Assembly: GCA_951406725.2 (NCBI GenBank)
Contig: OX597827.1
Span: 43,772,001-43,836,000 of the forward strand
Reading direction: 5' to 3'
DNA from: Octopus vulgaris
Taxonomy: Eukaryota
Length of the DNA: 64,000 nucleotides
Below the pieces are notes generated by a model. That model made no database searches. It was not told the origin of the DNA and saw nothing but the letters and a program-made list of their open reading frames with translations. Below are positions 140 through 43,914 of the stretch, piece after piece (the first letter of the stretch is position 1; each line of letters starts with the position of its first letter). Made by a program: the position numbers and the translations under genes.

Positions 140-4180
<4,041 letters not shown>

Positions 4181-4693: not shown

Positions 4694-5041
4694 TGGTAAT
4701 AATGGAATTTTTAAGAAATTTCTGTCGGCTTTTTTCGAGTAGCGTGCGTATTGTGATAAATTATATGGTAATGGATGGACATTATGTTCAATTTTCGGCA
4801 TATTTGGCATTAGAAATGTTTTCGTTTGCCCTTATTTATAAGTTGTTTATATATATATAAGTGTGTTGTGTGTGTGTGTGTGTGTGTATGTGTGTGTGTG
4901 TGTGTGTTTGTGTGATTGACCCTCCCGTCGTTAGACGACATATGAGGGTTCGAGAATTTCTTACAGTGATAAATTCGAAAGAAGAAGCACACTCTAAGAT
5001 GTAGAGCACTATATATTAAAAATGGGGAAGGCCGATTTACA

Positions 5042-5100
5042 GGATTACCTTAGGTTTCCCATCCATAAAGTGTTTAGTTTTATGGCGAATCGTCAGATCC
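5042..5100 (-). ncRNA. Hammerhead ribozyme (left arm of a fold-back)
   Basis: Minus strand: ggat-CTGACGA-ttcgCCATAAA actaaacac TTTATGGatgg-GAAA-CCTAAGG-TA-atcc. Confidence 0.7.
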
Positions 5101-5128
5101 CCCAAAATGATAGGCCAACAGGTTTTGG

Positions 5129-5188
5129 GGAATCTGACGATACGCCATAAAGCTAAACCCTTTATGGACAAGAGACCTAAGGTAATCC
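5129..5188 (+). ncRNA. Degenerate hammerhead ribozyme (right arm of the fold-back; GAGA instead of GAAA)
   Basis: ggaat-CTGACGA-tacgCCATAAA gctaaaccc TTTATGGacaa-GAGA-CCTAAGG-TA-atcc. Confidence 0.55.
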
Positions 5189-5217
5189 TGTAAGCCGGTC
5201 TTCCCCTTTTTTAACGT

Positions 5218-14680: not shown

Positions 14681-14726
<46 letters not shown>

Positions 14727-14813
14727 GGATAATTCGCAAAAAAGCAATAGACAAAGACAGGTGGTAAAACAACAAACAGATGCATTAGTTTAACGCTCGG
14801 GAAGTGAAAAAGT

Positions 14814-14849
14814 CTTTAACGTTTCAAACCTACGCTCTTCCACAGAAAG
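14814..14849 (-). ncRNA. Degenerate minimal hammerhead-like motif
   Basis: Minus strand: cttt-CTGTGGA-agagcgtaggttt-GAAA-CG-TT-aaag. Same repeat family as 17009 and 17822. Confidence 0.4.
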
Positions 14850-15062
14850 AAACAAGGAGAGAGAATAAAGAATGTGTAGTAGCTAACGATCTAAGATCCA
14901 CAAAGATCAAAACTTAACTGCAGCTCTTGGTGGTCCAAATCGCAGATGCAATTCATGTGGATGTATTTTCCAAACATTGCCTGGTTTAAAAAGCCGCATC
15001 AGATGCCATGATGATTTTAAGGCACAGGAGATGGTGAAACTCTGCATAAGGAGTAGACAACC

Positions 15063-15462: not shown

Positions 15463-16174
15463 CTCTTATCTTCGATAACCACGAGCTCTATGCTGCAATG
15501 ACAACCAACAGGAAACTCTGTTGTACGTGTGGATGAGGCATATAGGGTGCGTGGAAAACTAGAATGAAATTTGGTTTAGAAATATACCCTAAGGAAATAT
15601 TTAAAAGTGTAAAAGTATTTAGAAAAATATATCCACTATTATTTACGGTGAAGAAACATAGATGAGCGGGTTATACTAAAGAGAATTTCACAAGTACTTA
15701 GAAATTAAACAACTTGACAGAATATAACGTACCTATGAAAGAAAACTGCGAAAAATATATTATAGCTGTATTATATTAACACTTAAACAGAGATAAATGC
15801 CAAAAAATAAGGTAAAGGGTATCAATATTGTAGATGTTCTTGTAACGAAATATAGTTACAATGTTCTCAACTTGAAGTTAATTGATTTGGCAAGACTAGG
15901 AATAGATTAAAAATAATAATTTCATTTAGAAAGAAAACATTGAAAAGCCGGCGTATGAGGATTATATTTACTGCGAATTACGCGCTGGTAGGCGGTCTTC
16001 TTCAACGAAAAATTATTAAACGTGTGTGTGTGTGTGTGTGTACTATAGGACAACTGAAGTATCTTGTAAAGAATTAAGGTAAACCTATACAAGTAGCGAG
16101 AAGACTATAAAAATCAACAACAAAACTGTTTTCTCTCATCAGAGAAGGCAAATATGTACATACACTAACACACA

Positions 16175-16281
<107 letters not shown>

Positions 16282-16347
16282 CATACATACATATATATAT
16301 ATAAACTTATATATATGTATATATATATATATGTATATATATGTATA

Positions 16348-16492
<145 letters not shown>

Positions 16493-16924
16493 AGTGCGAC
16501 AGATAACCGACTGTGAAGCTGTGTGAAGGCTGGAGAAATTATAACAGACACTGTTAAGAAAATAAACAACTAAATTGAAAATTTAATTACGAAATGACAT
16601 CCTCAGACATTTGAAAGCAAAAAGCCACACAAAACCAATACCAAATTGGCTAATACCGAAATGGCTAAAGAGAAAAAAAAATCGAACATTGACTGGTAAA
16701 ATCAACATGCAAAAGTGCAACGAGGTCCGAAATCATGGAACAAGTCCAAAGTCTTCCCATACACCGGGAACTAATGAAATGTGTAGTGAAGTGGTGGAAA
16801 AGCATTTGTAATTTAGACAATTTTGAAAGGAGTTTGCTAATCGACATCATCGATACTTCGACCCCAATACTTGAATGGTACTCTGTTTTGTCGACCCCGA
16901 AGAAATTATGAAAAGCAAAGTAGA

Positions 16925-16973
<49 letters not shown>

Positions 16974-17008
16974 TTATTTATTCTCTCTCAGTTTATTTTC
17001 TCTTGTTC

Positions 17009-17043
17009 CTTTCTGTTAAAGAGTGTAGGCTCGAAACGTAAAG
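17009..17043 (+). ncRNA. Degenerate minimal hammerhead-like motif
   Basis: cttt-CTGTTAA-agagtgtaggctc-GAAA-CG-TA-aag. Confidence 0.4.
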
Positions 17044-17242
17044 AGACGAAATACGGCGAGCCATTTTGCCAGTGCTTAAACGATCATGTCTAGACGCCGG
17101 CTTAAATCAGTCTATAATATCTAACAGAAAAAAGTATGGAGATCTTTGAAGAGACAAGTCATATTGTTTTGATTATTTAGTCATATGTACCGCAGATCAT
17201 CTATATATGAAATCGGCATATGATCTCAACGGAAATCTTATA

Positions 17243-17383
17243 AGCTGACAAGGCGAGATAAGTTTAACCCTAGGCGCAGTGAGAGCCACTGATGAGCGTT
17301 AAGATGCATTAAACATCAAAATGCGAACTCACCGATGATCTGGCTGTATCTGCGACCATAGGGAGATTGCCCCATCGTCAGCT
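17243..17383 (+). ncRNA. Type I hammerhead ribozyme with extended stem I (A15.1C variant)
   Basis: agcca-CTGATGA-GCGTT..GATG cattaaa CATC..AATGC-GAAC-TCA ccga TGA-TC-tggct. Stem I continues cgcag/ctgcg, ccctagg/ccataggg and agctgac/gtcagct. Confidence 0.75.
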
Positions 17384-17667
17384 CATTAAGGTAGCACCAG
17401 TTTTGCTAGAAATAAGAGTCAAAACAACTCAAAAACTTTTTGAAAGGAATGCACTAATCGATGCCATCGACACTTCGACCCCAGTACTTGAATGGTGCTC
17501 TGTTTTGTCGACCTCGAAGAAATTATGAAAAGCAAAGTAGACTTCGGTGGGGTTTAACTTCAGAAGGTAAAGAGACGAAAGAAACACGGCAAAGTTGTTG
17601 TGACTCTTATTTCTAGCAACAATACTGGTGTTAATTAGTGCCCTTGTTCACATTAGTAAAAGACGTG

Positions 17668-17738
<71 letters not shown>

Positions 17739-17821
17739 GCAATTTACAGAAAAGCAAAAGACGAAAATAGATGTATAAACAAGCAGGTGTATTAGTTTCA
17801 CACTCGGGAAGGTGAGAAAGT

Positions 17822-17857
17822 CTTTTACGTTTCGAGCCTACGATCTTCAACAGAAAG
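17822..17857 (-). ncRNA. Minimal hammerhead-like motif (A6U variant)
   Basis: Minus strand: cttt-CTGTTGA-agatcgtaggctc-GAAA-CG-TA-aaag. Confidence 0.45.
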
Positions 17858-17900
17858 GAACACGAGGAAATAAACTGAGAATAAATAAATAAATAAATAA

Positions 17901-17971
<71 letters not shown>

Positions 17972-18146
17972 TAAAGGGTGAAATATAATTAATTTAATAA
18001 AATCAATAAATTTCACCTAGTAATACTTCAGTATGGAAAAGGACCATATTCGGTAAAAATTTGTATAATTATAATAATAAGGGTTTTTTGCAACAAGTTG
18101 TTTAAAACACATACCGAAAATATTAGAAAAATATTAGAAAAACCCT

Positions 18147-18227
<81 letters not shown>

Positions 18228-18316
18228 CATATATATACATGCATACATACATACATTTATGCGATAATATCGAACAGTGAGAATGGTTGTTCAACACCAT
18301 ATTCGAAAACGGGGCT

Positions 18317-18501
18317 AGACGCAGGCGTGGCTGTGTGGTAAGAAGTTTTCTTCCCAACCACATGGTTCTGGGTTCGGTCCCACTGCGCGGCACCTTGGAC
18401 AAGTGTCTTCTACTATAGCCTCGGGTCGACCAAAGCCTTGTGAGTGGATTTGATAAGCGGAAATTGAACGAAGTCTGTCGTGTGCGTGTGTGTGTGTATG
18501 C

Positions 18502-18536
<35 letters not shown>

Positions 18537-18680
18537 TGATGCTTGATGACTGGTGTTGATGTGTTTATGTCCTTGTAATGCTTTAAGAAAAAAATGCTGA
18601 GGTAGATTCATTCGGCAGAAAAATTCTTCAAGTCGGTGCCCAAGCATGGCCGCAGTCTAATGACTGAAACAAATTCAAGA
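18317..18680 (+). mobile_element. SINE family A
   Basis: Homologous head and tail. Confidence 0.8.
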
Positions 18681-18761
18681 TCTAAATGGTCTGTATAAAC
18701 AACCAGTTTATACTGGTTTATAATGGATATTCTACACTATATCTATCCGCTACACTCACAA

Positions 18762-18815
<54 letters not shown>

Positions 18816-20179
18816 CTTCTCTCTCTGTTTTCCTTTCTCTCTCTCTTTGTCTCTCGCTCCTTCTATCTCTATCTCTCCCTCTCTCTCTATGTACAATCTG
18901 GGTCACCCACTGTGGTTTCTGGATGTTCACGCGTCCGGGAAATCAAAAGTGTACCTGTCTTGAAAGTATCAAACATCTATAGATATTCGGCGGTCATGAG
19001 CCGGAAAGGTGCATAGACGGACCCTATTGAAACGGCACTGTCTTCTCTTCCGTTCATATCCAACACCACCAATTTAAACCCTCCCAAGCAAGATACAAAA
19101 CAGATCATGTGTACCCCTAAATCCAAACCTTTCTGGGACAGCACCTGCTCTCCACCGCTAATTCGCAAGATGAACACACCTTGTAACAGTCAAACATTGG
19201 TGTAAAGGCATCCGCAGCTGTGTATAAAGATCTGAGGTCGTTAAGCAAGTGACCTTGCTCCCAAACTGATTCCGCCCACACATATTCACACCGCCTTGTC
19301 TGAGCGAAGCCGGATCTGTTGGAGGAAATAAAAAAGTGAGCAGAAGAATTACAGGTCATGATGACCTCCTGCAGGAGTGTCTTCCATGAGAGGCCATTCT
19401 CATAAGTTTTTTTTCTTTTTCGTTTTTTATTATCCATTCTTTTCCAGAAAATTCAAACGTTTTCTGGGAAATTGTTGGGAAGTGTTTTCTGTAGATCTGC
19501 TGACGTTTTTATTAATATTCTGTCTTTGGGTATTTGAAGGATGAATTCTTCAAATTCTTCTCTTTTGTTGCTATTTCACATTTATTTATTTATTTATTTA
19601 TTTATTTACCTTTTTATGTACTCCAAGCTTCATCCACTGAGAATTTCATTCTTATACGTACATATTTATAAATGATACAACAGACTCGGACACTATACCA
19701 CAGCGAACGCACATAACACATAACACATACACAATGCAGAAAATTCATGCATTCACAGACACACTTCCAGACACATAGACACACATATTTACCTTCAAAA
19801 CACTCTACACACGCACATACCGCCCACATACCTTATTCGTACCACCACACATCACGCATATAGCACTATATGTAATCTATACACAAGCATAAAACTCCTT
19901 AATAAATCTACACGCTAGTATAACACTCCTTATACACGTCTCATACACTCATACGTTATATATGTATTCTACGACATACATTTCGAATACATTACTACAC
20001 GTTCTCATTCACACACACACATACACACATACATAAGCCACTACACATTCTCATCGTTTCATACACACACACACACATACACACACACACACATACACAC
20101 ACACGCCATATGCACACCGTTATACATATCATAAAAGCAGATTTCCACTATCATATATGCACATACTTCAAGCGCCACC

Positions 20180-42313: not shown

Positions 42314-42355
<42 letters not shown>

Positions 42356-42530
42356 AAAATAGTAAAGTGTGAAAAAACGACAGAAGGCTTAAATGTTAAA
42401 AAATATATATATTTGTGTCAAAATGTCTGGAGAATATTGGAAAAATTTTTTTTTTTTTTTTTTTTTTCTTTCCTTAAAATGACATAATTTTAAAATTTTT
42501 AAAGAAATTACCGGTTTTTTTAAAAACCTA

Positions 42531-43544
42531 TTGAACAGCATAAACCCAAATATACAGTTCACAATGGAATACAACCAAAAGGAGCTCCCGTTCTTGGATA
42601 TACTAATTAAAAAAATTAACCTTAAAATAGAAACAGACATTTTTTACAAAGCCACAGACGCCAAACAATACCTTCTTTTTAATTCATGCCACCCAAGACA
42701 CACTAAAACAAACATTCCCTTCAACCTTGCAAGAAGGATATGCACAATAGTGTCAGAACAAAATACCAGGAACTTTAGACTGCAAGAACTCAAAAACACC
42801 CTAATTGACAGACATTACCCAGCTCAACTCATAGAGGATGGGATCAGACGTGCAACAGAAATCAACATAGAAACTTTAAGAAAAGTTCAACACAACAACA
42901 CACCTTCCCCGAAAATACTACCTTACATATCTACATACAACCCCAGAAACAAAGAAGCCTTCACCATCATCACCCAGAATTTACCAATACTTCATAAAAA
43001 CCCAAAATTAAAGGAAATTCTAAACATACACCAAATCATTAAAAGCTACAAACAGCCTAAATCACTTAAAAAGATTCTCACAAAGGCAAAATTGTCTTCT
43101 AAAATTACGGATGCAAAAGTAAAAAAATGTGGTAGATCGAACTGTGCAACATGTCCTAACCTATTGGAAGGATCAGAATTCTTCTTTAAAGAGGGACAGA
43201 AATTTAAGATCAAATCTAACTTTACTTGTGCCTCTGAAAACATAATTTATGTTATTAAATGCTCGGGCTGCCACCAAGACTACGTGGGTTCCACGGGACT
43301 ATCACTCAGGCGTAGATGCACACTGCATCGACAACAGATTGCATTCCCAGAATATAGAATGATACCTTTTAGTGAGCACATTGAGAAATGCGCAAAGCAA
43401 CTACTGCCACAATTTTTAATCTTCCCATTTTACCAATGTGCTTTCGGATCATCAACACAAATGAGACTGAACAAGGAAACATTCTTCATTGAAAAGTACA
43501 AACCCAGACTCAACCATCCGAACATACTGACACAGAGAAATTAA
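42531..43544 (+). CDS. Penelope-like retroelement ORF, 5'-truncated (RT C-terminus/thumb + Cys-rich linker + GIY-YIG endonuclease)
   Basis: Uninterrupted 337-aa frame with PLE RT motifs (LNSINPNIQFTMEY, LPFLDILI, TDIFYKATD..QYL.FNSCHP), linker LPYISTYNP and KKCGRSNCATC, and GIY-YIG motifs FTC.SENIIYVIKCSGC...YVGST..SLRRR...H...E..FIEKYKP.LN. The frame is open from about 42515 with no real start codon. Confidence 0.95.
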   Translation: MNSINPNIQFTMEYNQKELPFLDILIKKINLKIETDIFYKATDAKQYLLFNSCHPRHTKTNIPFNLARRICTIVSEQNTRNFRLQELKNTLIDRHYPAQLIEDGIRRATEINIETLRKVQHNNTPSPKILPYISTYNPRNKEAFTIITQNLPILHKNPKLKEILNIHQIIKSYKQPKSLKKILTKAKLSSKITDAKVKKCGRSNCATCPNLLEGSEFFFKEGQKFKIKSNFTCASENIIYVIKCSGCHQDYVGSTGLSLRRRCTLHRQQIAFPEYRMIPFSEHIEKCAKQLLPQFLIFPFYQCAFGSSTQMRLNKETFFIEKYKPRLNHPNILTQRN

Positions 43545-43682
43545 CAAGGAAAAAGGGGAAAAAAAATTTTTAAGCGATTATCTCCCTTACACCGGAAGAA
43601 ATCACTCACTACCTCCCCTTATTTAGAAATCTCCTGGAAATAAAAACAACGATAACTCCATGCAATATAAACATAACGTCAC

Positions 43683-43722
43683 AAGAAATTTGAAAAGCTA
43701 CACGCGAAACCGGTAATTTCTT
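43683..43722 (+). ncRNA. Minimal type I hammerhead ribozyme (U3-A8 core variant) in the PLE pLTR
   Basis: aagaaat-TTGAAAA-GC tacac GC-GAAA-CCGG-TA-atttctt: 7-bp stem I, palindromic stem III, GUA site with predicted cleavage after 43715. Confidence 0.75.
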
Positions 43723-43914
43723 TAAAAATTTTAAAATTATGTCATTTTAAGGAAAGGAAAAAAAAAAAAAAAAAAAAAAATTTTTCCAATATTCTCCAGA
43801 CATTTTGACACAAATATATATATTTTTTAACATTTAAGCCTTCTGTCGTTTTTTCACACTTTACTATTTTCTTATATATTCACCCACGTGCTTTACCAAT
43901 CAAACTTTCTTATC

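Follow-up and report, generated by a model that had tools for sequence, protein, structure and literature searches.

A probable dead copy of a hammerhead ribozyme retroelement family in Octopus vulgaris DNA

The question raised by this locus is whether the hammerhead-like sequence at 17243-17383 is a working ribozyme, and what kind of element it belongs to. The window, by which we mean the whole stretch of 64,000 nucleotides analysed, is animal DNA rich in microsatellites. An earlier note, made from the letters of the window, had read this sequence as a remnant of a retrozyme-like or otherwise undescribed ribozyme element. Coordinates below are window positions, and papers are cited by identifier from excerpts of their text.

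The letters, a structural descriptor and folding each identified a full-size type I hammerhead at 17243-17383, with its open end in stem I. Its parts are listed here in the hammerhead numbering of PMC3088659.

17243-17288, plus strand: 5' strand of stem I in five helices, with the 5' side of loop 1 at 17280-17283 and pair probabilities of 0.72-1.0
17289-17295, plus strand: hammerhead core C3 to A9, CUGAUGA, from letters and descriptor
17296-17324, plus strand: stem II, two helices around an A-rich internal loop, with the G10.1-C11.1 pair intact
17325-17328, plus strand: G12-A13-A14 and position 15.1 (GAAC), 15.1 being C here
17329-17338, plus strand: stem III, UCA-CCGA-UGA, with CCGA as the loop in the window copy
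17339-17340, plus strand: U16.1 and C17, with cleavage predicted after C17340 (A-U-C)
17341-17392, plus strand: 3' strand of stem I (to 17383), with the 3' side of loop 1 at 17346-17349, then family sequence to a rearrangement point

The consensus core (C3 U4 G5 A6 N7 G8 A9, G12 A13 A14, U16.1 and H17) is all present. The CUGAUGA core, the two-part stem II, the AUC site at C17340 and GAAC as the sole core deviation had all been read correctly in the earlier note. Its extended, internally looped stem I was also confirmed, as an interrupted stem of 29 bp in five helices formed by 17243-17288 with 17341-17383. Stem II consists of 5 bp, a 2x2 internal loop, 4 bp and a 7-nt loop. The three stems close beside the core (1.1-2.1, 10.1-11.1), stem III being weak in the energy model. 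The deviation is C17328, at position 15.1 where A is canonical; it lies opposite U17339, so that the A15.1-U16.1 pair is absent from the window copy. The sequence is a real hammerhead fold with one catalytic letter broken. A minus-strand CUGACGA at 17381 was considered as a second ribozyme and ruled out, there being no descriptor match.

A type I descriptor that accepts any base at 15.1 matched once on both strands of the 64 kb, at 17243-17383. Among block-wise dinucleotide shuffles, 1/300 matched when stem III had at least 2 bp and 0/300 when it had at least 3 bp. The minimum free energy (MFE) of the window copy was -47.9 kcal/mol (z -4.0), and 1/200 shuffles were as stable; the fold is mostly carried by stem I. 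A chance hairpin carrying hammerhead-like words would be consistent with the Rfam scores, which are far under the cut-off. Rfam gave 0 matches in the whole window at gathering score, and a scan of 1 kb around the motif at E<=10 gave 10 matches with no hammerhead among them. In a scan of 231 nt the best of 4 matches was Hammerhead_HH9, at 17 bits against a cut-off of 52 (E 0.096). The comparison with Rfam hammerhead models that the earlier note had called for was negative by Rfam's own thresholds for the hammerhead families of clan CL00010. In the HH9 alignment the 3' side of loop 1 matches letter for letter at GUA, and the A-rich segment that follows the first four pairs of stem II also aligns. 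The shuffle counts, together with relatives that carry the canonical letter and better pairing, make a chance hairpin hardly credible. Rfam cut-offs let hammerhead motifs such as this one go undetected. Matches to Rfam miRNA and RUF models were dismissed as TA repeats.

Relatives of the motif were sought in 4/24 sequencing runs. Contigs of DNA runs X1, X2 and X8 (organism labels A, B and D) were aligned to 17070-17445 at 80% likeness, which yielded 858, 1243 and 1175 contigs respectively, the majority on the 3' tail. The flank at 17070-17199 was covered by at most one contig, and 17206 to ~17390 by dozens of contigs per run. Within the ribozyme part, up to 81, 97 and 84 contigs had a single variant in common (X1, X2, X8). 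Summed depth in X2 and X8 was 150-290x that of the single flank contig, which is a rough guide and no copy number. The motif is one copy of a multi-copy repeat family. The other copies that the earlier note had proposed to look for thus exist, in dozens of contigs per DNA run. Within the 64 kb window, self-comparison and repeat searches found no second copy of the motif, and no tandem copy at this locus. Contigs of 1540 and 731 nt show one family piece each, among the 32 of 3628 alignment rows listed, and family copies look dispersed. The fourth run, X19, which is RNA by guess and may hold DNA, gave 62 contigs with listed ribozyme-part depths of 5-9; position 17328 was mostly A there (4 contigs). 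Contigs give no expression level, strand or circularity, and X19 supports no inference.

At 17328 the relatives carry A in 760/814, 3532/3923 and 2942/3062 of depth in X1, X2 and X8, or 90-96% (41, 52 and 42 contigs). The GAAC therefore reflects decay peculiar to the window copy, and no new catalytic variant. GAAA in the consensus, raised as a point to check in the earlier note, was borne out in all three runs. C15.1 as a natural catalytic variant was rejected, C being the minority letter among relatives. Since the A15.1-U16.1 pair is broken, no activity is predicted for the window copy. Substitutions at 15.1/16.1 slow cleavage by a factor of ten or more, and motif matches altered there are mainly cryptic mutants in repeats (PMC3088659).

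The locus itself is real: in organisms B and D there are contigs that run from unique flank into the element, and one organism B contig spans the inverted junction described below. Organism B contigs match the locus at 17070-17237 and 17280-17445, and an organism D contig matches at 17128-17309. If the labels denote different species, the insertion predates the split of B and D. Its presence in both runs, with a stem I that still folds well, would suit a working or host-adopted ribozyme, a natural C15.1 variant comparable to the conserved intronic HH9/HH10. Against this, the window copy has five private pair-breaking changes, including that at A15.1-U16.1 with its rate cost, and the organism D contig differs at 18/172 letters with 12 gaps, its match stopping at 17309. 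We regard an adopted ribozyme as very improbable. A dead copy of a hammerhead retroelement family is the reading we hold with high confidence.

Variants among relatives were then compared with the fold. Thirty variants within 17243-17383 were analysed, among 40 of 207 variant rows listed, and all are unphased. Of the eight majority letters among these listed variants that differ from the window copy, five restore a pair, two keep one, one is unpaired and none breaks a pair. The restoring positions are 17258, 17313, 17328, 17332 and 17366, that at 17258 by pooling two pyrimidines. As 4/5 restored pairs had entered the model after the variants were seen, a randomised control was run. The eight majority letters lowered the MFE from -47.9 to -60.3 kcal/mol; 0/1000 random sets of the same type were as low, and 1/1000 by ensemble energy. 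Two-sided compensatory changes are not visible in unphased variants. Among the listed variants, six minority letters (4-27%, two at CpG) break pairs. The core also varies, with U4C (17290) in 16-22% of depth and G12A, at a CpG, in 9-19%, and C10.2A (17297) is found in 14-27%. U4C and C10.2A are more frequent than random decay would make them, and they may represent subfamilies whose core differs. In relatives, C>T and G>A belong to the most common changes, several at CpG, as would be expected for an ageing repeat.

The family letters change the picture of stem III. Position 17332 is T in 91-97% of relatives' depth, giving a stem III loop of UCGA in the family as opposed to CCGA in the window copy. 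With T17332 and A17328, 17328-17339 becomes a perfect 12-nt palindrome, with a predicted homoduplex energy of -15.5 kcal/mol for the family 12-mer and -5.5 for the window copy. The isolated family 12-mer has no predicted hairpin fold, and the pair probability of a monomeric stem III is ~0 even with family letters. With family letters, a structure constrained to the monomeric hammerhead lies 3.5 kcal/mol above the MFE; for the window copy the penalty is 1.4 kcal/mol. The 'true stem III hairpin' of the earlier note was overstated, since in the window copy pair probability is ~0.04 for stem III and ~0.4 for stem II (0.92-1.0 with family letters).

Monomer cleavage, which the earlier note gave as a property of extended type I hammerheads, is not supported as such for this family, since a palindromic stem III is a trait of animal hammerheads that cleave as dimers. 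A palindromic loop 3 and dimeric cleavage are known in animal type I hammerheads (PMC4209133; PMC3088659, Fig. S8 legend; PMC6765202), and an internally looped stem I can also allow cleavage as a monomer (PMC6155905). By these models the family hammerhead may cleave in either way, and both modes stand. Monomer cleavage would be aided by a putative contact between loop 1 and loop 2, whose positions, with the GUA, match those of HH9.

What surrounds the motif may indicate how it arrived. The remaining parts of the element and its neighbours are as follows.

17206-17242, plus strand: 5' remainder of the repeat copy; other copies run on upstream of 17206
17393-17432, minus strand: inverted duplicate of the family 3' tail, from opposite-strand joints and depth, 85% identical to 17593-17633
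17438-17591, plus strand: SINE-like repeat interrupting the element, presumably a SINE; it duplicates 16821-16924 (89%) and is ~69-74% like eight other window copies
17593-17664, plus strand: 3' tail of the element in family orientation; when reverse-complemented, the loose-end consensus before 17393 matches it by eye
17665-17735, no strand: TA microsatellite adjoining the apparent 3' end of the element

In the bin 17200-17212, depth rises from that of a single flank contig into the hundreds or thousands. Before 17206, 26, 32 and 22 contigs (X1, X2, X8) have loose ends that agree at 0.63-0.76. As relatives thus extend 5' of 17206 into shared sequence, the window copy is 5'-truncated at that point. 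On the other side, relatives' pieces reach 17390-17394 in all three runs, and opposite-strand joints show them passing into the reverse complement of 17393-17432, which is the orientation found at 17593-17664. An assembly artefact at this inverted junction was rejected, as an organism B contig spans 17280-17445 with 5 differences. The element is at least ~300 nt long as judged by eye from loose ends, its 5' end lying beyond the aligned stretch, and the cut site is clearly >100 nt from its apparent end. Tail depth is 14x, 12x and 16x the ribozyme peak (X1, X2, X8), part of it possibly contributed by subfamilies through the 80% likeness cut. Among the 15 of 53 joints listed there was no 'goes back' joint of unit length; the unit is longer than the stretch aligned, so the family may have tandem arrays elsewhere.

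Some further observations concern this region. Some relatives in X1, X2 and X8 have a 39-nt back-joint at 17393-17431, where the tail is duplicated locally in tandem. In others a joint connects 17277-17307 with the tail; these may be copies without the ribozyme core. The SINE-like copies at 16821-16924 and 17438-17591 represent a local duplication with 617 bp spacing, the first being split by a microsatellite and a minimal-hammerhead fragment.

The 5' cut at 17206, the excess of tail depth and the TA run at the 3' end are signs of retro-insertion. 5' truncation, inverted copies and a microsatellite bias are Penelope traits (10.1101/2021.04.23.441226). Animal full-size type I motifs occur mostly in retrozymes, those of mussel included, and minimal ones in Penelope elements (PMC7229834); dispersed retrozyme monomers and a descent of retrozymes from Penelope termini have been described (10.64898/2026.07.22.740005). 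Within the dead-copy reading, we put at about even likelihood that this is a 5'-truncated solo copy of a non-autonomous, Penelope-mobilised element of the non-LTR retrozyme kind. The RNA of intact copies would cleave itself after C17, aided by the loop 1-loop 2 contact and probably also by the pairing of two palindromic stems III. RNA of unit length would be released and possibly circularised. A Penelope-like reverse transcriptase would then carry it to new sites through target-primed reverse transcription; TA runs would often be the target, and the insertions would often be 5'-truncated. The window copy was later interrupted by a local inversion-duplication with the SINE-like repeat.

A candidate for the kind of partner that this scheme calls for lies in the same window, a Penelope-like fragment with its own minimal hammerhead at 42483-43722. 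It belongs to a 5'-truncated Penelope-like element at 42347-43879. The 353-aa ORF at 42483-43544 resembles HTH_animal/GIY-YIG proteins (Atlas 0.97); a Pfam search of this ORF gave no GIY-YIG match and only SIR2 below cut-off. The hammerhead at 43683-43722 has a U3-A8 core variant and a 6-nt palindromic stem III. Segments 42347-42517 and 43707-43879 form an inverted repeat of 173 nt with 98.8% identity, an identity from which the element is probably young. No sequence link between the ORF and the hammerhead family was found, the ORF matching only itself in the window by tblastn, and the window holds no RT/GIY-YIG ORF near 17243-17383.

The main rival to the retrozyme-type reading takes the family for the pseudo-LTR at the 3' end of an autonomous Penelope-like element with a full-size hammerhead, its copies being mostly 5'-truncated stubs and the window copy ribozyme plus tail. 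The tail being 12-16x deeper than the ribozyme suits this, and a 3' excess this strong is no less expected of a long autonomous element than of a unit copied from a circle. The 5' cut with shared upstream sequence in relatives, the neighbouring TA run, the inverted local copy, a stem III palindromic as in Penelope hammerheads (PMC4209133) and a cut site >100 nt from the apparent end, like that of the Penelope fragment 42483-43879, point the same way. Metazoan Penelope hammerheads, in contrast, are minimal and without tertiary loops in the excerpts of PMC4209133 and PMC6155905, where canonical ones come from a plant's elements, and no ORF is linked to the motif in the window. We consider a Penelope terminal repeat possible though less probable than the non-LTR retrozyme kind.

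The dispersed copies, the full-size type I motif and the 3' excess could also belong to a LINE-moved SINE-like retroposon of the schistosome Sm-alpha/Sj-alpha kind, in which a hammerhead comes after a Pol III head; such elements have been described (PMC6765202). No tRNA gene was found in 16000-19000, and 20 B-box-like matches occur in the window, none within 17206-17664, although such a head could sit in the lost 5' part. This origin seems quite unlikely, and a Penelope-mobilised element of retrozyme type stays our preferred reading.

The family was compared with known systems. Like metazoan non-LTR retrozymes (PMC7229834; 10.64898/2026.07.22.740005), it is a short repeat carrying a full-size type I hammerhead with a palindromic loop 3, and it co-occurs with Penelope elements that have minimal hammerheads; solo monomers are known among those retrozymes. 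Unlike them, it has a strong excess of 3' tail and a locus that is single in 64 kb; stem III has 4-5 bp where 1-2 bp are usual, and stem II is extended by a second helix. A non-LTR retrozyme unit is non-coding and ~170-400 nt long, and the family unit is at least ~300 nt with its 5' end unreached. A retrozyme in the strict sense has tandem copies and circular RNA; as the locus has no tandem repeats, the window copy cannot strictly be classed as one. The retrozyme-like remnant of the earlier note thus survives as the remnant of a multi-copy hammerhead element, and not in the strict sense of the term.

Like Penelope pseudo-LTR hammerheads (PMC4209133), the motif is of type I, has a palindromic stem III in the family, and lies near the end of a 5'-truncated element beside a microsatellite. 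Animal Penelope hammerheads are minimal, with a stem I of 4-5 bp, little or no stem III and no loop-loop contact in the text cited, whereas stem I here is a rod of 29-32 bp. With a ribozyme larger than minimal and no ORF linked to it in the window, the motif cannot be classed as a typical Penelope terminus. The difference from minimal Penelope hammerheads claimed in the earlier note holds insofar as minimal ones do occur at 43683-43722 and 17822-17857, and a minimal-hammerhead descriptor matches other window sites only, never 17243-17383. The contrast is smaller than claimed, the family's stem III being palindromic.

HH9 (RF02275) and the Schistosoma Sm-alpha ribozyme share with the motif a stem I internal loop ~6 bp from the core with GUA on its 3' side. 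In the Sm-alpha ribozyme this loop makes a loop-loop contact. Part of the account of that contact is given in PMC6155905. HH9 also has the A-rich stretch after 4 bp of stem II. It differs in that loop 2 is internal here and capped by a further hairpin, and HH9 is a conserved intronic motif at a single locus rather than a decaying repeat.

Cephalopod hammerheads are on record in the giant squid genome, with 235 Rfam 'hammerhead 1' matches, reported in the excerpts of PMC6962438 as counts alone without family, structure or element; 17243-17383 scores nothing against that model. The mollusc SINE paper has no hammerhead in the part consulted (PMC4758252). No octopus hammerhead family is described in the literature searched; the family may be catalogued in repeat libraries such as Repbase or Dfam. 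'Undescribed element' fits at the level of the family, and not of the kind, as the family is likely a further case of a hammerhead retroelement kind already known in animals.

The window copy itself is ordinary debris. The family probably adds a cephalopod case to the animal hammerhead retroelements. Its long stem I rod, extended stem II, long palindromic stem III and 3'-biased dispersed copies bear on the origin of retrozymes from Penelope termini, and its anatomy also bears on monomer versus dimer cleavage by retrozyme ribozymes. It might represent a link between the two, with dispersed 5'-truncated insertions and a full-size hammerhead that works both as monomer (loop 1 with the internal loop of stem II) and as dimer (through the 12-bp palindromic stem III), an idea we hold to be rather unlikely. 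If the upstream part holds a reverse transcriptase, the family would be a Penelope lineage of animals with a ribozyme both canonical and fast, such as is reported only outside animals in the excerpts of the literature compared.

Other hammerhead-like sequences were noted in the window. A second repeat with a minimal hammerhead is present as fragments at 17820-17927 (minus strand), 16939-17047 (plus) and 14682-14854 (minus), each beside a TA run. Its hammerhead, best preserved at 17822-17857, has an A6U-type core with an inserted base and a 4-nt palindromic stem III. The fragments 17820-17927 and 16939-17047 flank 17243-17383 as a 90% inverted pair. An inverted duplication at ~5010-5210, centred near 5115, has CTGACGA in both arms and no hammerhead descriptor match.

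Metagenome collections scanned for the family core pattern and for the tail gave 0 matches. Viral collections yielded one chance 19-mer and three IMG/VR contigs with hammerhead-like motifs that are unrelated to the family, L001 at 501-577 (plus strand), L002 at 501-557 (minus) and L003 at 501-553 (plus). By eye, those of L002 and L003 are canonical-looking, with a long stem III, and lie directly upstream of a start codon.
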